From the IMG/VR virus record IMGVR_UViG_3300033802_000252, positions 77,891-141,890 of that record: DNA of 64,000 nt; one strand, given 5' to 3'. The notes under the pieces are model-generated. The model was not told the DNA's origin. It worked only from the letters and a program-made list of their open reading frames with translations, and ran no database searches. The position numbers and the translations under genes are program-made. This DNA is from a virus. Every line of letters begins with the position of its first letter. The first letter of the stretch is position 1. Below, in pieces: positions 1,797 to 34,828 of the stretch.

Positions 1797-1959
1797 AAAA
1801 TCGCATAAAAACAAGCGATTATACGTATGTACCGATGGCTTAGTCGGGAATTTACGCCTGTGGAGTGTTGTAGAACCTGTAGTAGCATGATGCGAGGCAG
1901 AACACGTTGAAGCAGGAACTTTTCTCGATATGGATATTTGTCCATATTTTGAGTAGCAG
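1797..1959 (+). mobile_element. IS607-family tnpB 3' end / RAGATH-18-like omegaRNA remnant, copy 1 (no tnpB ORF)
   Basis: Near-identical to 34667-34828. Contains a tnpB-like tail (AAAATCGCATAA = KIA*), GTACCGATGGCTTAGTCGGGAATTTACGCCTGTGGAG, GTTGAAGCAGGAA and a terminal hairpin ATATGGA-TATTTG-TCCATAT; ends GAGTAGCAG. Confidence 0.75.
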
Positions 1960-2329
1960 ATTGGGGATACATATCAGAAGATGACGGAGGTAACTTTGCT
2001 GCGAGAGATTTCTATGATGCTTTGCAATATCTTAGCGAACAAGGATGGGGGTTCGTTGGTACATATAAGGAGCCAGGTGCAGACAATGGTGAGGGATATG
2101 TGATTAGGAAAATATGACGGTCTGAACTGGGTTAAGCACCAAATCCAATCCAGCGGATTTGGTGCCCAAAATGAACCGGATGAATACGAGTCTATGGTGC
2201 AACTGGACATGCACAATCAAATCCAGCGTCTGCGGGCGGCGTTGGAACGCATAAAGAAATGGGCTGATAACCCTGAGCCCGGAACTATGTTAAAAGCGGA
2301 AAATGTGAGATGTGAAAGGAGTGAATTCC

Positions 2330-2902
2330 ATGAGTGAATATCTGAGCAAGAAAGCGGTGTTGGAATGGTTGACAGAGCAGTATTTCCACGGCATGGGAGA
2401 GGAGGCGTGGAACACGGCTATATCCAAATTGCAAGAAAAGATCGAATCCGGCGCATTTGATGCCGATGAATCCGAAGGTACTTGGAAAGCGACCGCTGAA
2501 GTCTTTGGGCGCGAAAACGCACAGATGAACAGCGAAGTCCAGCGTCTGCGGGAAGCGTTGGAGGAAGTGTATGAAGAATTGAAAACACTACACTTCATGA
2601 TTGACCACGACGACGACATTTTTCACGAGCGAAAAAAGAAATATCTTTCAATCATTGATTATGTTGGTCAGTCAGTTGCCGGGCAAGCCCTCTCCACCAC
2701 GACCGAACCAACCGGCCCTTACACCATCCGCCGCAACGAATACGGTCATGCCGTCGCCATCGAGCGAAACGGATATACGGTTCTGCATCTCCAGCCCGGA
2801 ACTGAGCGGAATGAGCAGGAAGTGGAGGGAATCGTGGCGTTGCTGAACATGAATGCGGCGAAGGTGGAACGGGTGAGGGAAGGAGACGGGAACGATGCGT
2901 GA
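2330..2902 (+). CDS. Hypothetical phage protein
   Basis: RBS AAAGGAGTG, ~190 aa ORF, overlaps the next start. Confidence 0.7.
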   Translation: MSEYLSKKAVLEWLTEQYFHGMGEEAWNTAISKLQEKIESGAFDADESEGTWKATAEVFGRENAQMNSEVQRLREALEEVYEELKTLHFMIDHDDDIFHERKKKYLSIIDYVGQSVAGQALSTTTEPTGPYTIRRNEYGHAVAIERNGYTVLHLQPGTERNEQEVEGIVALLNMNAAKVERVREGDGNDA

Positions 2903-3320
2903 GATACGTTTCAGGGGAAAGTGCATCGAAGATTGTGAGCTAAAAGGACAATGGCTATACGGACACTACTTGAAATCGGCAAGTCACTTTATCGCGGTCG
3001 ATCAAGGCTTGGTAGACGGGCATTTTAAACTGTACCAAGTTGATCCCAAAACAGTCGGGCAATACACCGGACTCAAAGACAATAACGGGAAACAGATTTA
3101 TGAGGGGGATATCCTCGAAAGTAACCACAAACTTTTTCGTTTAGAAGTAATTTGGTCGGAAGATTTGGCAATGTTCACGGTCAAAGGCGATGAAGATTGG
3201 GTAATGTTCACGGTTAATGGCGATAGTGTTGAGGCTCTTATAAGATGGGCTACTTACTGTGAAGTCATCGGAAATGTTTTTGAGAACGGGGAATTGTTAA
3301 ATGATTGTGAAGAAGCATAA
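2895..3320 (+). CDS. YopX family protein
   Basis: MREIRFRGK, TVGQYTGLKDNNGKQIYEGDIL, EVIGNVFEN. Confidence 0.9.
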   Translation: MREIRFRGKCIEDCELKGQWLYGHYLKSASHFIAVDQGLVDGHFKLYQVDPKTVGQYTGLKDNNGKQIYEGDILESNHKLFRLEVIWSEDLAMFTVKGDEDWVMFTVNGDSVEALIRWATYCEVIGNVFENGELLNDCEEA

Positions 3321-3858
3321 ACCGATTAAATTTATCAACACGTGCGGGTGCATTGTTGATGAAAAAGAACTTGAACAAGCAATTCTATGGTATACCGATA
3401 AGCCTGTTTGTGGTACGAAGAAAATCTTCATGCATGGGAATTATCCGGCGGTTGCAATCTACAAAGAGAAAATACATGTTCATCGATTGTTGATGATGTA
3501 TTGGCAGAACAGAAAATTACTTCGGAACGAATATGTGCATCATATTGACGAAAACAAACTGAATGCTATGAAATCTAATCTTTGTCTAATTGAGGTAGGC
3601 AAGCACCAAAGTATGCACAACAAAGGGAAAGTATTTTCTGAAAATCATCGAGCGTTAATATCCGAAGCCAATCGAAGACGTGCTGGAAGAATTAAATTCA
3701 AAAAACGTGTTCATATCGATTTGGTTGAGTTACAGAAAATGGCGTCTTCTGGTGCAAGTATAAGTTCGATGGCAAGGTATTTCAAGTGCGATCGATGGAC
3801 AATTAAAAATCGGCTATACGAAAACCCGGAACTGCTGAAAGGAGACGGGAACGCATGA
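3301..3858 (+). CDS. HNH endonuclease
   Basis: HVHRLLM...VHHIDENKLNAMKSNL...H..MH HNH core. Confidence 0.85.
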   Translation: MIVKKHKPIKFINTCGCIVDEKELEQAILWYTDKPVCGTKKIFMHGNYPAVAIYKEKIHVHRLLMMYWQNRKLLRNEYVHHIDENKLNAMKSNLCLIEVGKHQSMHNKGKVFSENHRALISEANRRRAGRIKFKKRVHIDLVELQKMASSGASISSMARYFKCDRWTIKNRLYENPELLKGDGNA

Positions 3859-4130
3859 TACGGTTGACACTGCTGAACGGTAAACATTGGTACGTGAATC
3901 CCGACCACATTGTTGGAATCAAGAGTGGCCATAAGTATGGAGCAGCGATAGAAAGCGATCACCAGACCGGAATAGAACACACAATAGACGTGACTCAAGT
4001 GCAAGAATCCCCCGAAGAAGTCGCCCGCAAGGTGCTGGAGTGGAAGTACATTATGCAAAAAGGCGCGTACACAAACACGCAGGAAATGGCGAGATTGCGA
4101 GAACTTGCTGGATTGGAGGAACAAGTGTGA
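3855..4130 (+). CDS. FlbD-like protein
   Basis: MIRLTLLNGKHWYVNPDHIVGI...VQESPEEV resembles the FlbD family. Confidence 0.65.
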   Translation: MIRLTLLNGKHWYVNPDHIVGIKSGHKYGAAIESDHQTGIEHTIDVTQVQESPEEVARKVLEWKYIMQKGAYTNTQEMARLRELAGLEEQV

Positions 4131-4366
4131 ACTATATGAACCCCATTCAAAAAGTTCTATATCCTGAAAAGTGTCCTGTGACTGGACTGCCATTTTTCAT
4201 GGAAATCCACCATCCTGAGCTTGGATATATACCCACCTATGGCGGTCCCTACGACAGTTACACGATTCCGATCAAGGACGAAAATGGAAATTGGTATCGC
4301 AAACGATTCGATCATGATGAAGGGTATTGGTATGACGATGAATGGATTGAGGAGGAACAAGCATGA
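4127..4366 (+). CDS. Hypothetical phage protein
   Basis: RBS GGAGG, GTG start overlapping the upstream stop. Confidence 0.65.
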   Translation: MNYMNPIQKVLYPEKCPVTGLPFFMEIHHPELGYIPTYGGPYDSYTIPIKDENGNWYRKRFDHDEGYWYDDEWIEEEQA

Positions 4367-4446
4367 CCCGTGATGAGATTTTGTCGCTGAAGCCGGGGCG
4401 GGAGTTGGATGCGCTAGTGGCGGAAAAGGATGGGCGGATGGAATGA
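4363..4446 (+). pseudogene. Truncated copy of the N-terminus of the 4782-5174 gene
   Basis: MTRDEILSLKPGRELDALVAEK; 24-bp identity 4388-4411 vs 4807-4830. Confidence 0.6.
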
Positions 4447-4646
4447 TCGGACTTGTCTACGAATACCGATGCCGAGAACATGGAGCTAAGAATCCGTATG
4501 TAATATTTCGCAATCTTCAATATTTACACTTGTGTCCTGAATGTAATCGAGAAATGCAAAAAACTTATGTTGATGTAAGGATATTCGGGGATTCATTGGA
4601 ACACAGTGGGCGGAGTCTTACGGAAAGGGGTCAGGACAAACTTTGA
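4443..4646 (+). CDS. Small zinc-ribbon protein
   Basis: YEYRCREHG...CPECNREMQK. Confidence 0.55.
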   Translation: MIGLVYEYRCREHGAKNPYVIFRNLQYLHLCPECNREMQKTYVDVRIFGDSLEHSGRSLTERGQDKL

Positions 4647-4781
4647 AAGAAATGGCGCCGAATCCTGATTTATGCGTGCTTTGCAGAGCGCGGAGGATCA
4701 AGTGGATAATTCGACATGTATCGAAGCCATTAGTTTTTGGAATGTGCGAAGACTGCTATTCGAGATGGGAGGAACCGAACC

Positions 4782-5174
4782 ATGACACGTGATGAAGTGT
4801 TGGCCATGAAGCCGGGGCGGGAGTTGGATGAACTTGTTATCCGGCATATTATGAATATTCCCATTGTAGAAAGTGTTGACTTATTCAGCCAAGAGCCTTT
4901 TCCCGCCGCGTGGTGGGTCGAAGACGAAGGATGGTATATCGCTGATGAGCGGGATGAAGATGGGCTGATTTATAGACCATTCAACCCGAGCGAAGACATA
5001 TCCGCCGCATGGGAAGTGGTGGAGGAGATGGGTGATTGCTTGCATTTGAGACAACATGGCGAACAAGGCGAATGGGAAGCATGGTTTTGTGGGTATCCAA
5101 CTTCGAAAGCACACGGTGAAACAGCCTCCGAAGCCATTTGCAAAGCCGCCCTTCTGGCGGTGATGGATGGGTGA
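4782..5174 (+). CDS. Phage ABA-sandwich-like domain protein
   Basis: PGRELDELV...FNPSEDISAAWEVVE...ASEAICKAALLA. Confidence 0.7.
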   Translation: MTRDEVLAMKPGRELDELVIRHIMNIPIVESVDLFSQEPFPAAWWVEDEGWYIADERDEDGLIYRPFNPSEDISAAWEVVEEMGDCLHLRQHGEQGEWEAWFCGYPTSKAHGETASEAICKAALLAVMDG

Positions 5175-5356
5175 AAGCATTACGAGCGTTTGAACTTTGC
5201 GAAAAATACGCGCGGTGCCATGAATGCGGAAGCGATCTTTTAGGAAACGGCGAGGGCACACTTAAAATCACTGACGATACTTTTATTCGTACCTGTAAGT
5301 GCGGGTGGAAAGTGGAGATTAAGGAGGTAACCCATGAACAAAATAGACGAGATTAA
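5171..5356 (+). CDS. DUF3797-like small Cys-rich protein
   Basis: CHECGSDLLGNGEGTL...RTCKCGW. Confidence 0.65.
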   Translation: MKALRAFELCEKYARCHECGSDLLGNGEGTLKITDDTFIRTCKCGWKVEIKEVTHEQNRRD

Positions 5357-5714
5357 GCAAACAAGAAAATGGATAGGAAGGCCATCGCCAAAGAGCGTGC
5401 GTTTTGGGACAGGATGGGTTCGTGAGTTGAATAAGGCTTGGACTGATTCCGATTTTACCTATGCTGTAATGTCGCGTGAAATTGAAACTGAATGGGGAAT
5501 TGTAACCCACGTTTGCATTCGCAACGCTGATAACACAGATATTCCTTGGGCAGAAAAGCAACGAATCAAAAATGAATTATTTGGGTCTGAACGGTGTGCG
5601 GTTGAAATATTTCCAGCCGAAAGCGAATTGGTTGACGCAGCGAATATGTATCACCTTTGGATTTTGCCGAAGGGCATGAAGTTGCCCTTTGGATTGAAGG
5701 AGGATAAACCATGA
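5334..5714 (+). CDS. DUF7694-like phage protein
   Basis: IPWAEKQRIKNELFG..R.AVEIFPAESELVDAANMYHLW. Confidence 0.7.
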   Translation: MNKIDEIKQTRKWIGRPSPKSVRFGTGWVRELNKAWTDSDFTYAVMSREIETEWGIVTHVCIRNADNTDIPWAEKQRIKNELFGSERCAVEIFPAESELVDAANMYHLWILPKGMKLPFGLKEDKP

Positions 5715-6301
5715 ACGAAGCGATCAGTAAGGCGAAACGTTGCGAACTATGTCCGCCTGATGAAGAAACGTGTTATTGCTATGATGATAAGCCAAGCGTA
5801 TACCTGACGGAGTCGCAGTTAGACGAGATAGTTAAGGAATTTGTCAAACCGGCAGTAAGCGAAGATGATCGTAGGCTGAAAATGACAGTTTTGAGTCTGG
5901 TTTCCGATTTGCGAAACTGCCGAGCAGAACTGGCCGAAGAACGCGCCGCTCATAACGCGCATGTGACGGAGTTGTGCGAGCTTGAAAAAGAAAACCGGAA
6001 GCTACGGCAGGAACGGGACGCATACTACAACAACGCCAGATATACCGAAGCATCGTTACACGAGGTGACAAGTCTACGCTCTCAACTCCAATCCGCCCAG
6101 CAGGAGATCGAGCGGTTGGAACAGGACCGCGATAAGCTGATCGAGGTGTTGCGAAAACTGGCAAAGACCAACGCTGAGAACATCAGTGAAATCCGTGAAT
6201 GGAAAGCGAAGCAGAATGATCCCGAAGTGACCGATTTGGACTGGTACAACTATGTCGCCCGCGACATCCTCAAAGAAATCGGGGTGATGATGAGTGAATG
6301 A
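5711..6301 (+). CDS. Hypothetical coiled-coil phage protein
   Basis: RBS GGAGG, ATGA overlap, heptad-rich sequence. Confidence 0.7.
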   Translation: MNEAISKAKRCELCPPDEETCYCYDDKPSVYLTESQLDEIVKEFVKPAVSEDDRRLKMTVLSLVSDLRNCRAELAEERAAHNAHVTELCELEKENRKLRQERDAYYNNARYTEASLHEVTSLRSQLQSAQQEIERLEQDRDKLIEVLRKLAKTNAENISEIREWKAKQNDPEVTDLDWYNYVARDILKEIGVMMSE

Positions 6302-6423
6302 GTTCTATCTTACGATCATCTTGTTATTAGGCGTTTCATTAACCTCGTATTTCTGGATGTCCAGCTTAGAACGTCGAATCAAAAGATTAGAGAACAGTCT
6401 TTCCGGACTGGAGGAACCGAACA

Positions 6424-6768
6424 ATGACTGATCGGGAAAAGAAGATCGCGGAGATTCGGAAATCCGTTGAAGAAGCGCGAAAAACAAAAGGTTCGTGGGT
6501 TGATGGGCAAGATTATGCATATGATGTTAAGTTCCTGCTGGACGAGTTGGATCGGTTGCGGGCAGAGCGAGATTCGCACGGACCGGAGGGACGTAACTAT
6601 ACGAATATGCAATACGTTGACTTACTGATGGAACGGGACAAGATGATCGAGTGGTTGCGAATGTGTTTATTCAATCATGGGTGCTGGCGTGAAGAAGATT
6701 ACGTCGCATATATGCGTAACCTCCTAAAAGAGATAGGGGTGACGGTGGAATGGGCAGAACCAAAATGA
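6424..6768 (+). CDS. Hypothetical phage protein
   Basis: RBS GGAGG; C-terminus LKEIGVTVE is shared with neighbouring genes. Confidence 0.7.
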   Translation: MTDREKKIAEIRKSVEEARKTKGSWVDGQDYAYDVKFLLDELDRLRAERDSHGPEGRNYTNMQYVDLLMERDKMIEWLRMCLFNHGCWREEDYVAYMRNLLKEIGVTVEWAEPK

Positions 6769-6932
6769 ACCTGAACAACCTGAATCATCAACTGGTCGTC
6801 GTTGGGTTAACGGGTATGGTAGAAGAAGACGGGTTAACGCCGCATGAAGCGTTTGAAGTGGTAGAGGACATCAAGCAGAACATTTTCCACGCATTGGCCG
6901 AAATCCGACGCGAGAAGGTGAGCGGTGGATGA
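6765..6932 (+). CDS. Hypothetical phage protein
   Basis: ATGA-coupled small ORF. Confidence 0.55.
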   Translation: MNLNNLNHQLVVVGLTGMVEEDGLTPHEAFEVVEDIKQNIFHALAEIRREKVSGG

Positions 6933-7213
6933 GTGAAAAGTCATGGAAGCAGATACGGGAAGAACTCAAGATGCTCCTGAGGCAAATGTGCGTAACGCCG
7001 GTGGACGAGGCGCTGGAGTACATTGACGATATTTTGAAGTTGCAAGAACAACTCCAATCCGCACATCAGGAGATAGAGCGGTTGGAACAGGAACGCGACA
7101 AACTGATCGAGTGCTTGCGGTTTTACGAACGTTTGGCACGCGGCAGAGAGGTTAACGACGGAGGGCGCAGGGCGAGAACGTTGCTGGCAGAAATCGGGGT
7201 GACGGTGGAGTGA
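6929..7213 (+). CDS. Hypothetical phage protein
   Basis: ATGA overlap; shares the QLQSA.QEIERLEQ block with 5711-6301. Confidence 0.65.
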   Translation: MSEKSWKQIREELKMLLRQMCVTPVDEALEYIDDILKLQEQLQSAHQEIERLEQERDKLIECLRFYERLARGREVNDGGRRARTLLAEIGVTVE

Positions 7214-7303
7214 TATGGCTTCACAATTGCCCGCAGAATTAAGGAAAATAAATATAATAAGCATGATACATAAAGTGATAGTTTTTTAATAAGTTTATTT
7301 TTT

Positions 7304-7386
7304 GTCGGAGTGGTGGAATTGGCAGACACACAGAACTTAAAATTCTGCGGTTTTATACCTTGTCGGTTCGAATCCGACCTCCGACA
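7304..7386 (+). tRNA. tRNA-Leu (anticodon TAA), CCA not encoded
   Basis: Acceptor stem GTCGGAG/CTCCGAC, D-arm TGGTGGAATTGGCAGACAC, anticodon stem CAGAA-CTTAAAA-TTCTG, long variable arm, T-loop GGTTCGAATCC. Confidence 0.9.
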
Positions 7387-7419
7387 TTTTTTATTAAATT
7401 AAAAAAAGGGTGATTAAAT

Positions 7420-7884
7420 ATAACGAATAAAGGTAAATTTGATTTTAGTGAAAAAGTAGTTGAATATGAAATTGATAGTAATGGTTGTTATATTTGTTTA
7501 AGTGGTTTTATTAAAAATGATGGCTATCATTCATTTCATATTAAAGGAAAACAAGTAAGAATACATAGATACGTATACGAAAAGATGATAGGGCAAATAC
7601 CAGAGGGCTATGTTATAAGGCACAAATGCGATGTACGAAGATGTATTAATCCTGAGCATTTAATAGCAGGAACACATGCTCAAAATGTTAGAGACAGGGT
7701 TGAAAGAAAACGATCAGCAATAGGTGAACGAAATGGAAGATCAAAATTAACAGAGCAACAGGTTAAAGAAATAAAATACATAAAATCATTGAACAATACC
7801 ATATTGGCATACATTTATGGGGTAGATCGTAGGGTTATAAGAGACATAAAAACGGGAAGAAAATGGAGACATATTCAAATATAA
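7420..7884 (+). CDS. HNH homing endonuclease (probable ATA start)
   Basis: RIHRYVYEKMIGQIPEGYVIRHKCDVRRCINPEHL..GTHAQN; frame open upstream to a TGA at 7411, RBS AAGGGTGA before ATA. Confidence 0.85.
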   Translation: MTNKGKFDFSEKVVEYEIDSNGCYICLSGFIKNDGYHSFHIKGKQVRIHRYVYEKMIGQIPEGYVIRHKCDVRRCINPEHLIAGTHAQNVRDRVERKRSAIGERNGRSKLTEQQVKEIKYIKSLNNTILAYIYGVDRRVIRDIKTGRKWRHIQI

Positions 7885-7899
7885 AAAAGGAAGTGAATC

Positions 7900-8466
7900 A
7901 TGGCACAGTTATACTTTCGATATTCAACTATGAATGCTGGTAAGTCGCTTGAGATCTTGAAGATTGCTAATAATTATCGAGAGCAAGGTAAAAATGTCAT
8001 GATCTTTACTCCAGCAATTGATAATCGTTATGGTGTAGGAAAAGTAACTTCAAGAATTGGAATCAGTGAAGATGCATACATAGTTGGCGAAGATACGAAT
8101 ATATATGAAGTTGTTTTAAAAAATAAAAATGTAAATTGTGTACTTGTTGATGAAGCACAATTTTTAACCAAGGAACATGTTATTGATTTAACATTGATAG
8201 TGGACAAACTAAACATTCCAGTTATTTGTTATGGATTGAAAAATGATTTTCGGAATGAGTTGTTTGATGGCAGTAAATGGCTTCTTGTATATGCTGACAA
8301 GATCGAAGAAGTAAAAACAGTCTGTTGGCAATGTGATAGAAAAGCAACTATGATTTTAAAAATAGAAAATGGACAGCTTGTATACAGCGGAAAACAAGTA
8401 GATATTGGTGGCAACGAAAAGTATATGAGTGTATGCAGAAGACATTATTATAATCCTGAGTTGTAA
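7900..8466 (+). CDS. tdk: Thymidine kinase
   Basis: YSTMNAGKS, VLVDEAQFL, YGLKNDF, CWQC, Y.SVCRRH. Confidence 0.95.
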   Translation: MAQLYFRYSTMNAGKSLEILKIANNYREQGKNVMIFTPAIDNRYGVGKVTSRIGISEDAYIVGEDTNIYEVVLKNKNVNCVLVDEAQFLTKEHVIDLTLIVDKLNIPVICYGLKNDFRNELFDGSKWLLVYADKIEEVKTVCWQCDRKATMILKIENGQLVYSGKQVDIGGNEKYMSVCRRHYYNPEL

Positions 8467-8561
8467 ATTTCCTGAGAAATAAGATTTTCTTCGATAATTA
8501 TATACTGTTCGACATAACATTCAAAATGAAATAAATCAGATTCTAAAAAGGAGGTGAACAA

Positions 8562-8837
8562 ATGAACTTATCAAAGAGTGCAATTAAGAATCAACAGATT
8601 AGGCAGCGAGTTATTGATATTGCTAACTACATAATTGAAAATAACGCTACTGTAAGAGATGTTGCGAAGAAATTTAATATTTCTAAAAGTGCTGCTCATA
8701 TGGATGCTTCTATTCGATTGCAAAAAGTGAATCCATTGCTATACAAGCAAGTGAAAAAAGTATTGGATTATAATGCATCTATAAAGCATATTCGTGGTGG
8801 AGAATCCACAAGGCGATTTCATAAAAACAAAATATAA
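8562..8837 (+). CDS. spoIIID: SpoIIID-like sporulation transcription regulator
   Basis: IANYIIENNATVRDVAKKFNISKSAAHMD...RL..VNP.LY..V..VLDYN..IKHIRGGESTR. Confidence 0.85.
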   Translation: MNLSKSAIKNQQIRQRVIDIANYIIENNATVRDVAKKFNISKSAAHMDASIRLQKVNPLLYKQVKKVLDYNASIKHIRGGESTRRFHKNKI

Positions 8838-9454: not shown

Positions 9455-9480
9455 TACATATTCGTTAAAAGTTCAATTTT

Positions 9481-11750: not shown

Positions 11751-12413
11751 ATGGAAAAATACATATGTAAAATTGATGGCAAAGAATTTACTGAGTATAA
11801 TGATCTACTTGATTATATTCAAAACACATATGTTGATGTTGTTGTTATTACAGACAAAGATGAAAATGGGCTGAACGTTGAGTCCATATATAAAAAGTTT
11901 AAAAGAGTAATGCCAGAGTATGTTAACATACGTGTCAATAAAGACAATGACTTAGATCGTTATCTTGTTAATATTGATTCCAATATATGTAACTTTTCTT
12001 TTTATATTGGATATAGCGAGTGGGAGTATTACCATAATGTATTTATCAATGTAGAAGATGCGATTAAATATTATCAAGAATTTTTTAAAACGGCGGATAA
12101 GATTATAGAAAAGGTTGAACAGGAATATAAACTGAAATTAAGCGTAAACCAATTATGGGAATCCCCAGGAGAAGGGGGACGAAGCATTCATTTTGTATTT
12201 GATCTCAATGGTTCAGAAGTGGGAGTGTATTATGATTTTGATTGCGATATTGATGAATTTATGGACGTCTTTAAGCAATATACAGAAAACGTTTTAGAAG
12301 GTAAATTAGAAAAAAACAATAAGGGATACTATACTGAATATAAAATTGGTGGGGTTTCAATTGATGGATTCATAAATAGAAGTAAGAGGGTAAGACTTGA
12401 GATTTTGGAGTAG
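11751..12413 (+). CDS. Hypothetical protein, paralog of 22354-23037
   Basis: Shared N-terminal KY...IDG..F and C-terminal IDG.....R..RLEI.E. Confidence 0.75.
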   Translation: MEKYICKIDGKEFTEYNDLLDYIQNTYVDVVVITDKDENGLNVESIYKKFKRVMPEYVNIRVNKDNDLDRYLVNIDSNICNFSFYIGYSEWEYYHNVFINVEDAIKYYQEFFKTADKIIEKVEQEYKLKLSVNQLWESPGEGGRSIHFVFDLNGSEVGVYYDFDCDIDEFMDVFKQYTENVLEGKLEKNNKGYYTEYKIGGVSIDGFINRSKRVRLEILE

Positions 12414-12427
12414 GGGGAGCACCATTA

Positions 12428-12517
12428 ATGAGTATTATCGTCGTTATTAAAGACAATGATATGGTTTGGGTAGGTTGTGATAGTCAAGTAACACGAATAC
12501 AAAAAACGACAAGGTAG
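12428..12517 (+). pseudogene. N-terminal fragment of an Ntn-hydrolase/HslV-like protein
   Basis: MSIIVVIKDNDMVWVGCDSQVT, then an early stop. Confidence 0.4.
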
Positions 12518-12576
12518 AGATTGTTGAAGAATAAATAATATATAAAATCAGAATTAAACAGAATGGGGTTTTAAAA

Positions 12577-12813
12577 TTGTTGGCTAGGATAAGTAAGGAC
12601 GATGTAATTGTTATTGATAATACATTTATTTTGGGTGAAGAAGCATATGATTATGCTCAATTAATAAATAATTATCCATTGGAACATGAGGACTATATAC
12701 AAGTATTAAAAGTGGTTGCTGAAGTTGGATTGAAGACAAGAAAGAGTGGAGAGCAAATTTCAAGTGAAATAAAAAATATATATAGTAATATTTTTAATAA
12801 AGAGGGGGTCTGA
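12577..12813 (+). CDS. Hypothetical protein
   Basis: TTG start with RBS GGGG, 78 aa. Confidence 0.6.
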   Translation: MLARISKDDVIVIDNTFILGEEAYDYAQLINNYPLEHEDYIQVLKVVAEVGLKTRKSGEQISSEIKNIYSNIFNKEGV

Positions 12814-12816
12814 TAA

Positions 12817-14301
12817 TTGGAGATTAATAAAGCATATCATATAGATTGTGTAGAGGGATTGAAACTATTAGCCGATAACTCAATAGATGCAATCGTGACC
12901 GATCCTCCCTATGAGCTAGGATTTATGGGGAAGAAATGGGATTCAACAGGAATCGCATATAATATTGATATGTGGAAGGAATGTTTGCGTGTCTTGAAAC
13001 CTGGTGGTCATTTGCTTAGTTTCGGGGGAGCGAGGACATATCATAGAATGACTTGTGCAATAGAAGATGCAGGATTTGAAATACGAGATCAAATTATGTG
13101 GATATATTCGCAAGGAATGCCGAAATCTCAAAATATTAAAAAGGCAATTGAAAAGAAGTCAAAATCATCAGAGTTAGCAGAACAATGGTTAGGATGGGAA
13201 TCAAATCTGAAACCAGCTCATGAGCCTATTGTTTTAGCACGTAAGCCACTAAGCGAAAAGACTATAGCAGATAATGTGCTTAAATGGAGCACTGGTGGAT
13301 TAAACATTGATGAATGTAGGATACCAACGGATTGGAAAAATGAGTATTCTGAAAGCTGGTTCAAAAGTGGTAGGGGTAAAACTATAACATGGAATGGTGA
13401 TGAATATAGAACTGATATGACTGCAGGAGATCGAATTAATTCAAAAGGAAGATATCCTGCTAATGTTATATTTGATGAAGAAGCGGCCAAGATGCTTGAT
13501 GAACAAAGTGGTATTTTAAAGAGTGATTCAAATAATGTTAGAAGCAAGATAGGCACATTTTTAGAGCATGGCGGTTTAGGTAAGCCAGGAGACATTCAAG
13601 TTGCCTACGGTGATTCAGGAGGAGCATCTAGATTCTTTTATTGTGCTAAGGCAACAAAGAAAGAACGTAATCAAGGATGTGAAAATTTAATAGTGTGGGA
13701 GAACGTGGAGTTGAACCCACTAATAGGAGAGTTAAGCCGACACCTAAAGGATATATTAGAGTATATGATGCAGAAACAAAAAAATACAGAATGGAACATA
13801 TTATCATTTGGGAAAGAGATTGTGGAAAAATACCCAAGGGATATGATATTCATCACAAAGATGGGGATAAAACTAACAACAATATTGGAAATCTTGAACT
13901 TGTTGATAAACTCACTCACAAAAGAATCCATTCGGGATGTTTTAGAGATGGTAATGGAGAATGGCATAAACCTTGCAGAAAATGTGGAGAAGTTAAACCA
14001 ATTAAAACAGAATACTATAAACGAAGAGATGGAATCTCTTCTTGGTGTCGTAAATGCTGTATTAGCAACGCTATTGAAAATAAAAGAAAAAGGAAGAGTA
14101 GGAAATATACATAGTACAGTAAAGCCATTAAAACTAATGGAATATCTAATTAAGCTTGTTACACCACCTAATGGGATTATTTTAGATCCATTCGCAGGTA
14201 GTGGCACAACATTGTTGACTGCCAAGAATTTAGGGTTTAATTACATAGGATTTGAAAAAGAAGAAGAATACATGGAAATCATAAATAAAAGATTAGCATA
14301 A
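12817..14301 (+). CDS. N6/N4 DNA methyltransferase (beta class) with a ~140 aa insert
   Basis: VTDPPY, SRFFYCAK...H.TVKPLKLMEYLIKLVTPP, DPFAGSG; the insert coincides with the nested HNH gene. Confidence 0.9.
   Translation: MEINKAYHIDCVEGLKLLADNSIDAIVTDPPYELGFMGKKWDSTGIAYNIDMWKECLRVLKPGGHLLSFGGARTYHRMTCAIEDAGFEIRDQIMWIYSQGMPKSQNIKKAIEKKSKSSELAEQWLGWESNLKPAHEPIVLARKPLSEKTIADNVLKWSTGGLNIDECRIPTDWKNEYSESWFKSGRGKTITWNGDEYRTDMTAGDRINSKGRYPANVIFDEEAAKMLDEQSGILKSDSNNVRSKIGTFLEHGGLGKPGDIQVAYGDSGGASRFFYCAKATKKERNQGCENLIVWENVELNPLIGELSRHLKDILEYMMQKQKNTEWNILSFGKEIVEKYPRDMIFITKMGIKLTTILEILNLLINSLTKESIRDVLEMVMENGINLAENVEKLNQLKQNTINEEMESLLGVVNAVLATLLKIKEKGRVGNIHSTVKPLKLMEYLIKLVTPPNGIILDPFAGSGTTLLTAKNLGFNYIGFEKEEEYMEIINKRLA
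13695..14114 (+). CDS. HNH endonuclease nested out of frame within the methyltransferase gene
   Basis: KGYIRV...MEH..IWE...GKIPKGYDIHHKDGDKTNNNIGNLEL....H..IH plus CRKC...WCRKC zinc finger. Confidence 0.85.
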   Translation: MGERGVEPTNRRVKPTPKGYIRVYDAETKKYRMEHIIIWERDCGKIPKGYDIHHKDGDKTNNNIGNLELVDKLTHKRIHSGCFRDGNGEWHKPCRKCGEVKPIKTEYYKRRDGISSWCRKCCISNAIENKRKRKSRKYT

Positions 14302-16534: not shown

Positions 16535-17410
16535 ATGAGTCATTTCATAGTAGCAGTGTTTACTAAAGAGGGGCAAACAGTAGAGGAATTACTTGCTCCA
16601 TATCAAGAAAATAATATGGGAGATTGCCCAAAAGAATATCTTGAGTTTTATGATGTCGAAGAAGAGTATCGCAACAAGTATGAGAATGAAGGAATTGAAA
16701 AAGTTAAATTGCCAGATGGAAGGTTGTTGTCATCTTGGGAAAGTGGAGCAAGAGAATATGAAAATCTAGAAAAAGTTAAAGTGCCATTTAAAGAAACATA
16801 CGAAACGTTTGAGCAGTTCATGGAAGAATGGGCAGGGTATAAAAAAGATGAGGAAACTGGAAAATATGGATATTGGGAAAATCCCAATGCGAAATGGGAT
16901 TGGTGGGTTGTTGGAGGAAGATGGAGTGGTTTATTAAAGTTAAAGGATGAGGCAACCACGGGGCAAATGGGCGATAGAAGATGGACTAACATTAATGAGA
17001 ATATTCCTAAAGGTAGGGTTGATTCAGCAAAAGTAAGGGATATTGATTTCTCAATTGATATGGATGAGTATAATAGAAATTTGAGATTTTGGGAACTAGT
17101 GGTGGAAGGCGACACTCCCAGAAATGTCGAAGAAGAGGAGATAGTAAAATGGAGTTTTTATTATAACCCAGAGTATTATTTAAATAGATATGATAGCAAA
17201 GAAGAGTATGCGAGACTATGCTCTGAGTTTGATGCATATGCAGTAATTACACCCGACGGCAAGTGGCACTCTAAAGGTGAAATGGGTTGGTGGGGAATAA
17301 GTAGTGAGTCACATGAAGAAGCAAAAAAATGGAATAAATCTTTTAAGGAAGCGTTCATTGATAATGCTGATCCCGAGTGGACATTAACTATTGTTGATTG
17401 CCATATTTAA
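16535..17410 (+). CDS. Conserved hypothetical phage protein
   Basis: MSHFIVAV, NPNAKWDWWVVGGRWSG, A.ITPDGKWH..G.MGWWG, LTIVDCHI. Confidence 0.8.
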   Translation: MSHFIVAVFTKEGQTVEELLAPYQENNMGDCPKEYLEFYDVEEEYRNKYENEGIEKVKLPDGRLLSSWESGAREYENLEKVKVPFKETYETFEQFMEEWAGYKKDEETGKYGYWENPNAKWDWWVVGGRWSGLLKLKDEATTGQMGDRRWTNINENIPKGRVDSAKVRDIDFSIDMDEYNRNLRFWELVVEGDTPRNVEEEEIVKWSFYYNPEYYLNRYDSKEEYARLCSEFDAYAVITPDGKWHSKGEMGWWGISSESHEEAKKWNKSFKEAFIDNADPEWTLTIVDCHI

Positions 17411-27036: not shown

Positions 27037-27071
27037 GATTTCCAGAGGATAATTCTTAGGAGGTTTCTCAC

Positions 27072-27820: not shown

Positions 27821-27850
27821 TTTTAATTGAAAAAGTAAAGGAATGAAATT

Positions 27851-28435: not shown

Positions 28436-28436
28436 A

Positions 28437-28661
28437 ATAAAAAATATTATTCATTGGAATATATTTAAAAAGTGCTTTGTAAGTCATACATACAAAGGAT
28501 GTTCGTATCCATCTGTAATTTTAGTTGAGGGTAAGTGGACTACAGATGTCAAGCCGCAGCGTAAAACAAATCCTAGAGGATGGGTTGTATGCGATCATAC
28601 TCAAGTGATACATAATCCACCTGATGATGTTTTAAATCAATATATTAAACAGAAAAATTAA
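28437..28661 (+). CDS. Hypothetical protein (probable ATA start, 74 aa)
   Basis: RBS AAGGTGA 6 nt before ATA; open frame KNIIHWNIFKKCFVSHTYKG...PRGWVVCD. Confidence 0.5.
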   Translation: MKNIIHWNIFKKCFVSHTYKGCSYPSVILVEGKWTTDVKPQRKTNPRGWVVCDHTQVIHNPPDDVLNQYIKQKN

Positions 28662-28938
28662 TCTATGACAAGGTGAATATGAAATTTAATATTACTGAAG
28701 GCGATGGATTGATTTGTGACAAAAGTGGATGTTGGTTAATTAAAAGAAAGGAAGGTTATGTATGAATAAATCTATCGATCAACACACAGAAACATTAGAT
28801 GATCTTATTTTTGAAGTGGTTAGAAAGTATGCAAAACAGCATAATTTAGTTATTAGTCAAGAGTCATCATATGATAAAGGAAAAATTGTTATTTTTATTA
28901 AAGGTGAAAATAATTAAAATTGTAATTTTATTGGAATA

Positions 28939-29778
28939 ATGGAGGATGATAGATTGAGCAAAGAGTTACTTGGAAGTCTTGAAATAAATCGTATCTATCA
29001 AATGGATTGTTTAGAAGGTATGAAACTATTACCAGATAATTGTATAGATTTAACGGTAACATCACCGCCATATGATAATTTACGTACATATAATGGTTAT
29101 ACATTTGATTTTGAGCCAATTGCAAATGAACTATTTAGGATTACTAAAAATGGCGGAGTGGTTGTTTGGATAGTAGGAGATGCTACGATTAAAGGTAGTG
29201 AGACTGGAACAAGTTTTAAACAAGCATTGTATTTTAAGGATGTTTGCGGGTTTAATTTGCATGATACAATGATTTATAAAAAGAATGCATCATATGCACA
29301 CGATCCTAGAAATAAAAGATATAAGAATTGCTTCGAATATATGTTTGTTTTCTCCAAAGGTAAGCCAAATACATATAACGAAATTAAAGATGTCCCAAAC
29401 AAACATAGTGGAAAGATTGCAACAGGAACAAAGGGGAGAACCAGATATGGAGAATTAAGAAAGGTTAAACCTGTTTTGATTGGAGAATATCAGGCTAGAA
29501 GTAATATTTGGGAATATAATACAGGGAGGGTTATGACATCAGACAAAATCGCATACAAGCATCCTGCTATATTCCCTGAACAATTAGCAGCAGATCATAT
29601 CTTAAGTTGGAGCAATGAAGGGAATGTTGTACTTGATCCGTTTATGGGTTCAGGAACAACCGCTAAAATGGCTCAAATATATAATCGAAAGTTTTTAGGA
29701 TTTGAAATATCACCAGAATACATACAAATTGCAAATTTAAGATTAGAAAGTATTAACGAAGATTATCCAATCAAATAG
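28939..29778 (+). CDS. N4-cytosine/N6 DNA methyltransferase
   Basis: VTSPPY, HPAIFPE.L, DPFMGSGTT. Confidence 0.9.
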   Translation: MEDDRLSKELLGSLEINRIYQMDCLEGMKLLPDNCIDLTVTSPPYDNLRTYNGYTFDFEPIANELFRITKNGGVVVWIVGDATIKGSETGTSFKQALYFKDVCGFNLHDTMIYKKNASYAHDPRNKRYKNCFEYMFVFSKGKPNTYNEIKDVPNKHSGKIATGTKGRTRYGELRKVKPVLIGEYQARSNIWEYNTGRVMTSDKIAYKHPAIFPEQLAADHILSWSNEGNVVLDPFMGSGTTAKMAQIYNRKFLGFEISPEYIQIANLRLESINEDYPIK

Positions 29779-29798
29779 GAAATTTATAGGGGGATTAT

Positions 29799-30017
29799 AT
29801 GAAAGTGATAGATCATGTAACTAAAAATGAAATTGGCGAAATGAAATTTAATTCATTTAAAGTTGATGATACTTTTAGAATTCAATTTTCTGATGGAAGT
29901 CAAAAATACTATTTAGTGACTGGCGTGGATTATAGTGATGATGGAAAAGTTTATTTTTTTGAAATGACAAAAGATCAATATAATAAGGGACTGCGAATTA
30001 AGGACTTACTAGTTTAA
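29799..30017 (+). CDS. Hypothetical protein
   Basis: RBS GGGGG, 72 aa. Confidence 0.6.
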   Translation: MKVIDHVTKNEIGEMKFNSFKVDDTFRIQFSDGSQKYYLVTGVDYSDDGKVYFFEMTKDQYNKGLRIKDLLV

Positions 30018-30266
30018 TAAACATTTTGGAGAAGAGGTGAAATAATGCTCAGAGGTTGGATTGGTGCAGATTATGAAGATAAAGAGCATCTTGAGAATTT
30101 AGGAATAATTTTAGGTGAATACGATGAAGCAAATGGTGAGTTTAAGGATTGTATTGTTTCAGAAGAAGCATTTCGAAAATTAGAGCCATATTGGTTTATC
30201 CGATATATATGGCATCTTCAATAATCATTTTTAAAAGATGTAGAAAAATACTGGAGGTTGATTTAA

Positions 30267-30338
30267 ATTAGAGTATTGTCACTTTTTGATGGAATGTCCA
30301 GTAAGAAAATAAAGAGTAAGGAATTTGATAACAGATGA
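30267..30338 (+). pseudogene. Remnant of a C5 methyltransferase N-terminus (motif I)
   Basis: RBS GGAGG, then IRVLSLFDGMS, then unrelated sequence and a stop. Confidence 0.55.
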
Positions 30339-30577
30339 ACAAATTTGCATTTTACAATGATACACAAAAACAAGTCCATATTCATCCTGCAACATTTAAA
30401 TATGGTTGTAAATGTACAAGTATTTTGCCAATTAAACATATGGAATACAGAGTGTTTGATTTACCACAAGGAACAATGCCAATGCTAAAGGTATGGGACT
30501 ATGGAGATAGGGGACTTGGTATTTTAGTTACATCTTTGTCAATTGAAGATTGGAGTGATAATAAAAATGAAATCTAA
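30335..30577 (+). CDS. Hypothetical protein, paralog of 15125-15346
   Basis: Shared IHPATF..GC and LP.GT.PMLK.W. Confidence 0.7.
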   Translation: MNKFAFYNDTQKQVHIHPATFKYGCKCTSILPIKHMEYRVFDLPQGTMPMLKVWDYGDRGLGILVTSLSIEDWSDNKNEI

Positions 30578-30585
30578 TTGCTCAA

Positions 30586-30891
30586 TTGAACATAGATGGC
30601 GTTCGCTCTAATATTCAAACATTCAATAAAGAGCAAATTATTTCAATACTTGTTAAATTAAATGCATATGCATTATCAGCTAAAGACCTTGGCATTTTAG
30701 AAGAATACATTATTAGTGGATATAATGTAATGGATTGGATTGCAGACTTAAAAGCCAAACTTGAACATGTCACTAGAAAAGAAGAAATTCAAAAACTAAA
30801 AAGTATGGAGGCCAAACTAGACCGACTACTATCTGATGAAAAGAAAGTAGAACTGGAAATTGATGAGATTGCTAAAATGTTAAAAGAATAA
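30586..30891 (+). CDS. Hypothetical phage protein (possibly frameshifted at the 5' end)
   Basis: The RBS-supported ATG near 30567 is out of frame; C-terminal coiled coil. Confidence 0.55.
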   Translation: MNIDGVRSNIQTFNKEQIISILVKLNAYALSAKDLGILEEYIISGYNVMDWIADLKAKLEHVTRKEEIQKLKSMEAKLDRLLSDEKKVELEIDEIAKMLKE

Positions 30892-31198
30892 TTTTATAGG
30901 AGGGTTAGAAAGTGTCAGATCAATCAAAACAGTTGACTGAAATGGTTTTAAAGGAACTTGAAAAAGCCGGGATTAATGCTAAGAAAGTGGGCAGGAACGA
31001 TATCACATCAGCCATTGTCGGGAATCGCCTTAAAAAATTGCATATCAATTTAAGAGAATCCTATCGATTTTCCGTACACTGACGATTGGTTTATTTGCAA
31101 AATTTTATTCAGGCTCTGCAACGCATCTAAAGGGATACATTTTGAGTTTAGTTCAATAAAAATAAAATATAATATTGAAATAATGGAGGTAAAAGTAT

Positions 31199-31828
31199 AT
31201 AATTAGTTATACAATAAAACAAATTAAATTTTCTGATGCTAGGGACTATATCAAGAAGCATCATTATTCGCATGGCTGTCATAATGGTGCTTCTCCTTGC
31301 TTTGGTTTGTTCGATAAAGATGAATTAATTGGTGTTTTAATGTTTGCTACACCATGTAGTGAAGCAGTAAGGGCGAGTGTATTTGGAAAATAATACAAAG
31401 ATCATGTAACAGAATTGCATAGACTACATATTTTAGACGTTACACCTAGAAATACTGAGAGTTGGTTTATTTCCAGATGCCTTAAAGAGTTGAAAAAAAT
31501 TAAACCTAAAATATGGGCAGTATTATCATTTGCAGATAAGACAGAAGGACATGAGGGAATAATATATAAAGCGACAAATGCGTATAGACTTGGTTCAACA
31601 GGAAGGGCTAAATTTTACATAGATCAAGAGGGAAGGTTAAGACATCCTAGACAAAACGGTGTAAATATTACTGAATCGACGGCTGCTGAAATAGGTTGGA
31701 AAACTGTTATGAGAGATGCGAAAAATAGATATATGTGGTTGTTGCCAGATAATAAACGGCATAAAAAAGAGTTATTGAAATTATGTGATACTTACTTTAA
31801 GAAATATTTGAACGACAAAATAAAATAA
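31199..31828 (+). pseudogene. Mom-like adenine-modification protein (GNAT fold) with in-frame TAA at 31391
   Basis: RBS GGAGG, ATA start; HHYSH, LIGVLMF..P, [TAA], ELHRL, N.ESWFISRCLK, VLSFAD..EGHEG.IYKATN. Confidence 0.8.
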
Positions 31829-31854
31829 AATCTAGAAAAGAGAGGAAACCAAAT

Positions 31855-32127
31855 GTGCCTATTATCACTAAAGATAATGTAAAATATCTTCAATTTGGAT
31901 ACGGTGATATTTTTGTTGGTGATGCTAGAGACAAAAAAACTGAAAAAGTGTTTGGAGTAGTATTTGCTTTAACCGAACCTAAAGAAATAGGAACAGAGTG
32001 GAAAGAGGTAAAAGATAAACCTTTAGATGATTTTGATGTACATGTAGTAATGCAATTCGATGATATTAGATCGCTGGACGTTGTGATTGAAGTATTAGAA
32101 AACATTAGAAAAGAAATGATTCTTTAA
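31855..32127 (+). CDS. Hypothetical protein (intact paralog of 24589-24875)
   Basis: RBS GAGG, GTG start. Confidence 0.7.
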   Translation: MPIITKDNVKYLQFGYGDIFVGDARDKKTEKVFGVVFALTEPKEIGTEWKEVKDKPLDDFDVHVVMQFDDIRSLDVVIEVLENIRKEMIL

Positions 32128-32302
32128 AATGGAAATTAATGTTTTCTTTAAAATCGTTTTTAGTGAAAAAAGGAAGAGGTGATTTGTTTAAAATATAAAT
32201 TTCAGATGTTATAATATTGAGATTTGAAAATATTGTTGAACTAGATGGGTTCATTATGACCTTAAAGAAAATTTCAAGGGAAATAAAGGGATTAGAGGGG
32301 GA

Positions 32303-32605
32303 TTGAAAATGAAGTGTAAAGATTGTAACTATTTTAAATATAACTATAAAAACAAAGGAACATGTTATCATCCTGACGTACCATTATTAATTGTAAAACG
32401 TGATATGGAATGTAAATTTGAAGTAACAAAACTCAGATGCAGTATGTGTAAATATTGGCTTCCAGCAGAAGGTTTTAAAAGAGAAGATGATTGTGGTGGC
32501 TGCACATTTGGAGGTGGGTTTTATCCAATGTTTCTAAGAGAGCCATGTAATCTAAAAGAAGAATATAGGGTACAGGTTGAAAAAGAACATTCGGAATTTG
32601 TTTGA
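32303..32605 (+). CDS. Cys-rich hypothetical protein
   Basis: CKDCNYF...C...C...CSMCKYW...C..C...C. Confidence 0.65.
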   Translation: MKMKCKDCNYFKYNYKNKGTCYHPDVPLLIVKRDMECKFEVTKLRCSMCKYWLPAEGFKREDDCGGCTFGGGFYPMFLREPCNLKEEYRVQVEKEHSEFV

Positions 32606-32621
32606 GGGGAAATGATTAAAA

Positions 32622-32909
32622 ATGAAAGCAATCATTGATGGAAAATTATATGATACTGATAAGGCCGAGTTGATTACTCTTTTCAAAAGATATGTTAAAC
32701 CGAGAAGTTTATTGATTGAAGAGTTTCAAGAATGGGTAATGTGTGAATTGTACAAAACCCCCAAAGGAGCATGGTTCGAAATTGTTGGAACCGATACTCG
32801 TAATCCAACTTTAAATGTAATACCTTTAGAGCAAGCCAAAATTATTATTAAAATTGCCGATATCGATAAGTTTCTTGAATTATTTCCTGATGAAGTGGAA
32901 GAAGCGTAA
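32622..32909 (+). CDS. Hypothetical phage protein
   Basis: IIDGKLYDTDKAELI...LYKTPKGAWF. Confidence 0.7.
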   Translation: MKAIIDGKLYDTDKAELITLFKRYVKPRSLLIEEFQEWVMCELYKTPKGAWFEIVGTDTRNPTLNVIPLEQAKIIIKIADIDKFLELFPDEVEEA

Positions 32910-32933
32910 AATATATTAGGAGGAAATATTGAA

Positions 32934-33152
32934 ATGTATGATTGGCTTAAAGTATTAGAAACTGCTAATACAGTATTCCTAAAAATCGATGATGGGATTT
33001 ATGAAGTTTATAAAGATCGTAATGAACAATTTTCAGGAGCATTATATGTGGGGATAGAAGAAGTTATTAATGAATTAAATTCGAATCTAAAAGTTGCCAT
33101 TGTTAAATTGACTGAAACTGGAGTTCCGGTTGTAATACATTTTGATGAATAA
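32934..33152 (+). CDS. Hypothetical protein
   Basis: RBS AGGAGG. Confidence 0.6.
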   Translation: MYDWLKVLETANTVFLKIDDGIYEVYKDRNEQFSGALYVGIEEVINELNSNLKVAIVKLTETGVPVVIHFDE

Positions 33153-33172
33153 AAACAAAAAGGAGTGATAAT

Positions 33173-33358
33173 ATGTCAAAATGGACGAACCAAGAAATTG
33201 CAGAGAAAATGGAGATTGAAGGTTTAGGATATTTGATTCAACACTATATTTCAAGCGAAAGCATTGAAGATGAATGGCTGGCAGCTAAGTGGAAGAAGTG
33301 TGAGAAATTATTTAATGAAATACAAAATTATTTGAGTAAATATTTGCAAGATTGGTGA
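33173..33358 (+). CDS. Hypothetical protein
   Basis: RBS AAGGAG. Confidence 0.6.
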   Translation: MSKWTNQEIAEKMEIEGLGYLIQHYISSESIEDEWLAAKWKKCEKLFNEIQNYLSKYLQDW

Positions 33359-33545
33359 CTCAAATGGATAAAATTTACAAAACCAAGAGCAATGAAAAAC
33401 TGTTCACAATGAATGGATGAATGCTTGTGTTAGTCCACACACAAGATTATGTCTACATATTGCATCAATTGTGCAAAATTGCTGGAATAAGTAGTTAAAA
33501 GACTTTTTATAAATGAATTTATAATCCAAATTAGGAGGAAATAAA

Positions 33546-33764
33546 ATGAATATTATTAACATTATTGAAGAAAAAATTAAAAATCTACAAAAAGAAATTG
33601 ATGAAATTAATGAATTATTTGATGAAGATTTTGACCCTCAAGATTGGTCTGGTGGCAATTTTGATGACTGTTACGACCTTGGGTATGGTCATGGGAAAAA
33701 GTTTGGACGAATGGCAGCTTATAAAGAAATTTTAGAGTTTCTATTGAAAAATAAAGCGAGGTAA
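33546..33764 (+). CDS. Hypothetical protein
   Basis: RBS AGGAGG; FDPQDWSGGNFDDCYDLG. Confidence 0.65.
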   Translation: MNIINIIEEKIKNLQKEIDEINELFDEDFDPQDWSGGNFDDCYDLGYGHGKKFGRMAAYKEILEFLLKNKAR

Positions 33765-33768
33765 CAAA

Positions 33769-33954
33769 ATGGCTATTAAAAAACAAATAATTGTATTCTC
33801 AGTAATTTTTAATGAAGATGATACATATGCAAATTCAGCAGCAGAAGCAATTTCTCATTGTTTGTGCAATGAAGATGGCATTATAGAATGGGATTATAGA
33901 ATCAAAAAGGAAGAAACGTTAACAAGTGTTTTAAACGATGAGGATTTAGATTGA
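33769..33954 (+). CDS. Hypothetical protein
   Basis: RBS GAGG. Confidence 0.55.
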   Translation: MAIKKQIIVFSVIFNEDDTYANSAAEAISHCLCNEDGIIEWDYRIKKEETLTSVLNDEDLD

Positions 33955-33975
33955 ATAAAAGAGGAGGAGTAATAT

Positions 33976-34602
33976 ATGTCGTTTGTAAACTATGAAGAGC
34001 AACTTAATGAAATTTTTGAGGAAAAGGACGAAGTTTATAAAGTGCAACAAGAAGAAGGATGGCGCATTCAAGATTTAGAAACGGCTTTATGGGCTGATGA
34101 AATTGTTCATCAAAGAGAAGAGAAGGTGGCAGAAATTGAACGAGTGTATCAGGAGCGAAAAGAAAAGCTACTGGCAAAATTAGATGAATGGAAAGAACAA
34201 ACTCTTAAACCTTTGTAAAATGATATTGAGTTTTTTAAAACACACTTACACCTTTGGCACATGAAAGTGGTTGAAGAAGAAAAAAGAAATAATGCAAAGA
34301 AATTAAGCAAAACAATCAAGCTGCAATATCGTGACCTTACATATCGGAAACAAAATCCGCAAATTCTTATCAATGGTAAAGAGCCAGAGAAAGCAAAAGG
34401 CGATCCAATGCTGGTTTCATTTGTTAAAGAAAATAGACCTGATTTAATTAAAGAAGAAGTTGCATGGAAAGAATTTAAAGACACACTGAAACAAGTGGAA
34501 ATTGATGGTAAGTTGATGTATGTTGATGAAAATGGAGAACCAATTACCTTTATTGAATTGGTTCCTAGAGAAGATAAGTTTGATTGGAAGGTTAAAAATT
34601 AA
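33976..34602 (+). pseudogene. Gam-family host-nuclease inhibitor with in-frame TAA at 34216
   Basis: ORFs 33976-34218 and 34261-34602 are in the same frame, separated by a single TAA; W.I.D..TA.WA, SKTI.L, RKQ.P, EEVAWKEFK. Confidence 0.7.
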
Positions 34603-34666
34603 GACTATAAGGCGGAGTCCTAAATGGAGGAATAAACAATGATACGGTTAACGTGTTAAAATGTAC

Positions 34667-34828
34667 AAAATCGCATAAACAAGCGATTATACAGTATGTA
34701 CCGATGGCTTAGTCGGGAATTTACGCCTGTGGAGTGTTGTAGAACCTGTAGTAGCATGATGCGAGGCAGAACACGTTGAAGCAGGAACTTTTCTCGATAT
34801 GGATATTTGTCCATATTTTGAGTAGCAG
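34667..34828 (+). mobile_element. IS607-family tnpB 3' end / RAGATH-18-like omegaRNA remnant, copy 2 (no tnpB ORF)
   Basis: 162 bp; differs from 1797-1959 by two small indels only; retains TACAAAATCGCATAA (YKIA*). Confidence 0.75.

Follow-up and report, generated by a model that had tools for sequence, protein, structure and literature searches.

Two stand-alone RAGATH-18 guide-RNA scaffolds in a phage genome as probable solo right ends of its own IS607 element

The 64,000-nucleotide stretch analysed here (the window) comprises bases 77891–141890 of the 148,616-base virus record IMGVR_UViG_3300033802_000252 and carries two near-identical repeats, at 1797–1959 (copy 1) and 34667–34828 (copy 2), which resemble the right end of an IS607 transposon. 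TnpB nucleases of the IS607 group use right-end-derived RNAs (reRNAs, a type of omegaRNA) that derive from RAGATH-18 and are encoded past the tnpB stop codon, with a scaffold of ~187 nt followed by a 20-nt guide (Ren et al., 2024; PMC11061315). Both repeats open with AAA ATC GCA TAA (K I A stop) and have GAGTAGCAG as their terminus. They are 98–99% identical overall, the only differences being two indels in copy 2 (2 nt deleted, 1 nt inserted); their flanks are unrelated on both sides. A preliminary description made from the letters of the window had reported the same two copies with two small indels, the retained KIA stop, the shared terminus and the diverging flanks, and our alignment agreed with it on each of these points. 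The features on which the argument rests are as follows, with the guide length of 20 nt adopted from Ren et al. (2024).

1797–1959, plus strand: orphan copy 1, a predicted complete reRNA scaffold (Rfam, 62 bits; 99% identical to the right end of the full element)
1960–1979, plus strand: predicted guide 1, ATTGGGGATACATATCAGAA, directly after the right-end terminus; the first 20 bases of a GC-rich island
34654–34666, plus strand: diverged remnant of the last tnpB codons, now TGTTAAAAT (blastn; promoter scan)
34667–34828, plus strand: orphan copy 2, the same predicted complete scaffold with two indels (Rfam, 62 bits; alignment and consensus fold)
34829–34848, plus strand: predicted guide 2, TTTTCTTCTGATATTACAGA, directly after GAGTAGCAG
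11925–13927 of the virus record, outside the window: complete IS607 of ~2.0 kb (tnpA, tnpB and right end), with its RAGATH-18 on the minus strand

The resemblance to RAGATH-18 noted in the preliminary description was confirmed with the Rfam covariance model (RF03064), which matched 1857–1918 and 34726–34787 with 62 bits each (E 7e-10), against a gathering score of 44.9; the single further Rfam match within the window was a tRNA. In copy 1 the layout consists of a 5′ hairpin around the tnpB stop codon (stem-loop 1, SL1), a second hairpin, the RAGATH-18 core, a 3′ hairpin and GAGTAGCAG. The terminus is the conserved right-end terminus of at least 20 related IS607 elements, and in 20 relatives the scaffold started with the last codons of tnpB and ended in ...TTTTGAGTAGCAG, an extent identical to that of the orphans. 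In an alignment of 23 scaffolds, in which invariant columns were defined from the 21 that are linked to a TnpB, the conserved region likewise coincided exactly with the orphans, beginning with the last three codons of tnpB and ending at GAGTAGCAG, and each orphan matched all 67 of the 67 invariant columns. The two indels of copy 2 sit in loop columns whose length also varies among the TnpB-linked relatives. The consensus fold comprised 33 pairs, with compensatory changes in 15, and the 5′ hairpin enclosing the stop codon covaried (AUCGC:GCGAU, AUUGC:GCAAU, GCUU:AAGC, GCCU:AGGU). Both orphans are thus very probably IS607-type TnpB guide-RNA scaffolds (RAGATH-18-derived reRNA/omegaRNA) with differing 3′ guides and no adjoining tnpB.

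A third RAGATH-18 match was found in the virus record at 11966–12027 on the minus strand, directly downstream of the sole TnpB-type gene of the record. It belongs to the complete IS607, which is located 66 kb upstream in the same phage and encodes a serine-recombinase TnpA (204–236 aa, MerR-HTH/resolvase) and a TnpB of 411 aa ending ...NAKTYKIA*. The 163 bases that follow this tnpB are 99% identical to copy 1, and the one substitution that sets the full copy apart from both orphans lies at a position that is occupied by either base among the relatives. Direct adjacency downstream of an IS607 tnpB is a property of the third copy alone and not of the window copies. The absence of TnpB that had been described for these repeats holds inside the window but not at the level of the genome, where both tnpA and an intact tnpB are present. 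A search of the rest of the phage for IS607 genes with the same right end had been proposed in the preliminary description, and the finding of such an element with a 99% identical right end supplies what it presupposed for a TnpB acting in trans. The same element was present at the same site in a near-identical IMG/VR contig; among 185,579 species genomes no close relatives of this IS607 were found, the best TnpB being only ~65% identical.

The phage TnpB appears equipped for cleavage. It is 65% identical over its full length (E 2e-142) to the TnpB of ISFba1 (PDB 8IAZ), with an intact RuvC triad: the D in GIDLG, the E in ITIEDL and a D where the crystallised 8IAZ mutant has A. Among the residues that contact the target-adjacent motif (TAM), N61, N62, K80, K83 and N121 are retained and N122 is replaced by D, so that TAM position −5 may differ. 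The junctions of the full copy read ...AATGAATGGAG / left end ... GAGTAGCAG / AGGGTTTAATGGTTATG, the last being the start of a tail-fibre-like gene. The element thus separates the start codon of that gene from its Shine-Dalgarno sequence (TGGAG), and the TGGAG motif that it adjoins is close to the AGGAG TAM of the family. An AG core at this junction is favoured by the relatives; from the sequence, a GG-core reading of this one junction is possible.

For comparison, 79 bacterial loci that encode relatives of the phage TnpB were examined, and exact ends were taken from multi-copy genomes. The right end of the relatives always terminated in ...CCATATTTTGAGTAGCAG, with a start codon 6–13 nt further into the right flank. 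Five copies with a recognisable left end and TAM had AGGAG as the left flank; the exceptions were a sixth copy, from C. difficile, which ended in AAGTAG, and four copies of Clostridium sp. KNHs214 that showed no clear TAM. AGGAG is also the TAM of the IS607 TnpB in 18 of 22 strains, the remaining four having GAGGG (PMC11061315). An AGGAG on the left and a start codon 6–13 nt to the right imply that the RAGATH-18 IS607 family inserts between the Shine-Dalgarno sequence and the start codon, and the ribosome-binding site seems to serve the whole group both as TAM and as insertion site. The end of the TAM and the end of the scaffold had the dinucleotide AG in common in these relatives. The same arrangement, with GG, has been shown experimentally for CboIStron (10.1101/2023.11.20.567912).

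The orphans depart from this pattern on their left side. Neither left-end sequence nor remnants of tnpA or tnpB were found beside them, except for 9–22 bases of the last tnpB codons. The left flanks end in CCTTT (copy 1) and TGTAC (copy 2), which are not GGAG TAMs and contain no AG core, and the first ATG in the right flanks is 20–22 nt away, vs. 6–13 nt in the relatives. Lacking a left end, a TAM and a transposase-binding context, the orphans are solo right ends rather than mini-transposons. This bears on the possibility that they are mobile, mini-IS607 elements (comparable to miniature inverted-repeat transposable elements) that are moved by TnpA in trans and retained by TnpB homing. The occurrence of two copies at unrelated sites, each with a precisely defined right end, would be expected of such elements, TnpA is able to excise a mini-IS without tnpA and tnpB (10.1101/2023.11.20.567912), and a true example exists in Butyrivibrio virus Ceridwen (see below). 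However, TnpA requires ~40 bp of the left end for excision (10.1101/2023.11.20.567912), and no left end accompanies either copy, which excludes canonical mobilisation. The left junctions without GGAG TAM and AG core, and the right flanks without the start codon at the distance typical of family sites, also disfavour this explanation, which we regard as highly improbable. Of the "mini-IS607 relics" considered in the preliminary description, only the relic part is compatible with these data; the mini-IS607 part fails on the missing left end and TAM.

The positions at which the two copies were truncated are close to the 5′ border of the scaffold. Similarity of copy 1 to the full element begins at 1796/1797, 2 nt before SL1, and copy 2 is 99% identical to the full element from 34667, with a blastn match that extends to 177 nt. 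In the 13-base left extension of copy 2, 9 of 13 bases match the full element (chance ~0.004); the four mismatches are all transitions, two of them silent in the tnpB frame, and the tail of tnpB is changed from A K T Y K I A* to V K M Y K I A*. The left boundaries of the two copies are thus near each other relative to the scaffold but not identical, and both truncations stop within ~15 nt of its 5′ end; two such truncations by random deletion across ~1.8 kb are unlikely. In Bacillus-group genomes, all 20 of the right-end matches examined keep tnpB upstream, and in six of them this tnpB is truncated, split or frameshifted, with remnants of varying length. A 16-base palindrome, TAAAA-N6-TTTTA, occurs 16 times in the window (e.g., at 9466, 11712, 16473 ... 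61835) compared to ~1 expected; as candidate junction makers these sites can be discounted, as none adjoins either orphan. Reverse transcription of a guide RNA was also considered as the origin of the copies and was rejected because each copy has its own 3′ flank instead of carrying the guide of the source element. In silico removal of either orphan restored no convincing gene at its site.

The changes at copy 2 are unevenly distributed: four in the 13 bases outside the scaffold vs. a single substitution within its 162 bases. This imbalance would be explained either by gene conversion that maintains the similarity of the three scaffolds or by selection for the changes. The point changes have made TGCTAAGAC into TGTTAAAAT, an extended −10 box whose end lies 5 nt upstream of the scaffold of copy 2. 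On this evidence, we consider it probable that each repeat is a solo right end of the IS607 that the phage itself carries and constitutes a complete stand-alone reRNA/omegaRNA gene in which the new 3′ flank serves as the guide. The repeats may have originated from earlier insertions or recombinants that lost tnpA, tnpB and the left end. Copy 1 would be transcribed by read-through from a promoter at 1468, and copy 2 presumably from its own extended −10 box. The resulting RNAs would be loaded in trans by the TnpB of the full element, and the complexes would cut DNA that carries NGGAG followed by the guide, e.g., ancestral empty-site alleles of related phages; the predicted target allele has GGAG immediately before TTTTCTTCTGATATTACAG or ATTGGGGATACATATC. 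Use of the orphan RNAs in trans by the phage TnpB is a tentative prediction, supported by the presence of an effector locus with a 99% identical scaffold and an intact tnpB in the same record. The 3′ flanks of all three scaffold copies are mutually unrelated, which corresponds to a distinct guide per locus.

Several observations weigh against the orphans acting as guide-RNA genes. The near-identity of the three copies may simply reflect a recent origin. Neither CCTTT nor TGTAC, the two left flanks, is a TAM, and consequently a TnpB with these guides could not cut a simple allele from which the orphan has been removed. No second match of either guide was found elsewhere in the phage, exact scans of IMG/VR gave chance matches only, without TAM or flank similarity, and two scans of metagenome contigs for the guides yielded nothing. 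With up to two mismatches allowed, guide 1 had one match, at chance level, in 105 Bacillus-group genomes. Sibling phages were sought through neighbouring proteins in IMG/VR, a phage collection and a protein database, which returned only the phage's own protein, on 6 contigs, and empty-site alleles were found neither in these collections nor in the metagenomes. The 113-aa protein encoded next to copy 2 occurs on five further contigs. Finally, a terminator-like hairpin at 1759–1790 separates the strong promoter from copy 1. Since the present genome holds no target for the guides, the orphans may be recent relics that are functional only potentially.

An alternative view is that the orphans are inert, as debris of recent IS607 insertions or of recombination that has no effective loading of TnpB and is too young to have decayed. 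The 98–99% identity to the full copy fits a recent origin, no guide target was found in the collections searched, the left flanks lack a TAM, and gene fragments are found nearby: a DUF7788 fragment at 1485–1610, the startless frame of the right flank and a 6-codon stub before copy 2. Moreover, 36% of the public RAGATH-18 loci are not beside a tnpB, 64% adjoining such a gene (PMC11061315). On the other hand, the entire scaffold was kept in both copies (67/67 invariant columns) and almost nothing besides, whereas the decaying copies of the Bacillus group retain tnpB fragments of varied length. The four changes outside the scaffold of copy 2, compared to one inside, created a promoter-like box, and stand-alone omegaRNAs function in trans in another OMEGA system (PMC10691335). 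Inert debris is a real but rather unlikely explanation in our judgement.

The surroundings of the two copies contain further features:

1468–1496, plus strand: consensus-like sigma-A promoter upstream of copy 1 (TTGACA-17-TATAGT, 11/12)
1759–1790, plus strand: terminator-like hairpin directly left of copy 1 (−15.3 kcal/mol fold)
1960–7215, plus strand: GC-rich island of 5.3 kb (46.7% GC vs. 31.5% on both sides)
7303–7387: tRNA-Leu that follows the GC-rich island (Rfam)
34633–34662: candidate extended −10 promoter with TG before copy 2 (promoter scan)

The strong SigA promoter that had been noted upstream of copy 1 was recovered at 1468–1496. Left of copy 1, a fragment at 1485–1610 had a weak match to DUF7788 (E 0.0015), and two short frames right behind the promoter (1485–1750) resemble part of a larger gene that has been frameshifted. 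The left edge of the GC-rich island coincides exactly with the right end of copy 1; the island comprises ~12 small genes on the plus strand, among them YopX-like and FlbD-like genes, and no att-like repeats bounding it were found. Because copy 1 borders the island, guide 1 consists of imported DNA, and a shared mobile element acting as crossover point at copy 1 would be a reasonable origin of this border. The DNA around copy 2 is uniformly AT-rich, and the copy is flanked on one side by a 6-codon stub that has a perfect ribosome-binding site and on the other by the final part of a small reading frame. The first 11 bases and 5 residues of the stub (ATGATACGGTTAACG, MIRLT; 34640–34660) are the same as the start of the FlbD-like gene at 3855 (3856–3870), and from this likeness the stub may be a remnant of an FlbD-like paralogue.

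This arrangement also allows for the copies to serve the neighbouring genes, as an RNA leader, a processing site or a portable promoter or insulator, in a role unrelated to TnpB. Both copies are co-oriented with the genes downstream, and copy 1 stands between the only strong promoter and the genes of the island. However, every conserved feature of the copies is one that is required for TnpB binding in the relatives, and the downstream genes of the two copies are mutually unrelated. We know of no leader, processing, promoter or insulator role for RAGATH-18, and the probability of such a function appears minimal.

Under the preferred interpretation as solo right ends with guide-RNA function, the phage holds one complete IS607 together with two guide-RNA-only derivatives that were cut down to the functional scaffold with exact boundaries. 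If it is true that TnpB loads the orphans, a single nuclease gene would be equipped with three guides, which bears on the part played by TnpB elements in phage–phage competition and on how single-guide transposons could yield multi-guide systems. A more speculative extension, which we consider improbable, is that one TnpB and dispersed, independently transcribed solo guides form a multi-guide nuclease directed against sibling phages or donor lineages, in which point changes in leftover tnpB codons provided the promoter of copy 2 and copy 1 guards the border of imported DNA. Were this the case, the phage would represent a natural intermediate on the way from a transposon nuclease with one guide to a CRISPR-like system with several. 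The concept of stand-alone omegaRNAs is already published, and the phage repeats are a further example rather than a new principle; their value lies in offering a clean, testable case in which the island border and the new promoter are unusual.

Other RAGATH-18 loci without TnpB differ from those of the phage. Butyrivibrio virus Ceridwen (MN882553.2, ~17020–17250) contains an unannotated, protein-less mini-IS607 that comprises AGGAG, a left end of ~50 nt, a RAGATH-18 scaffold and the terminus TAGTAGCAG, which is followed after 5 nt by the start codon of a 708-aa gene; within 2.5 kb of the element, no TnpB was found. As in the window, this is a protein-less RAGATH-18 scaffold in a phage, but it retains the AGGAG, the left end and the site 5 nt before a start codon, all three of which are missing from the orphans. 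A different class of TnpB-less RAGATH-18 loci was observed in Haloimpatiens and Clostridium sp. KNHs214 (three loci, ~1200–1606, RNA strand). These loci have their own TGTGTATAAT-type promoter and a conserved ~190-nt 5′ extension, followed by RAGATH-18 and the end ...GGCAACGGA, and the class is conserved across genera.

Among the characterised systems, that of ISFba1 shares with the phage the RAGATH-18 core, the conserved 5′ and 3′ segments and ...GAGTAGCAG directly before the guide, and differs in that the window copies have no adjoining tnpB, tnpA, left end or TAM. The CboIStron/IS607 system of Clostridium botulinum resembles that of the phage in its serine-recombinase TnpA and in the core dinucleotide common to the TAM end and the scaffold end. 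The core pairs are TGGG/TCGG in CboIStron vs. GGAG/GCAG in the phage, and position −3 distinguishes self from non-self. In CboIStron, the end of tnpB and the guide-RNA SL1 overlap, and the 5′ hairpin of the phage corresponds to that SL1; unlike CboIStron, the phage has no group I intron, and the orphans lack the ~40-bp left end for TnpA. In OMEGA systems, stand-alone omegaRNAs are functional in trans when the effector is compatible (Altae-Tran et al., 2021, summarised in PMC10691335), and their biological role is called unknown in that summary. They share with the orphans the absence of effector and transposase at the locus, an effector with a near-identical scaffold in the same genome, and guides of their own. 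Those omegaRNAs are bacterial, associated with IscB/TnpB and "evidently mobilized," whereas the present copies belong to a phage and to the serine-recombinase IS607 group and bear no sign of canonical mobilisation.

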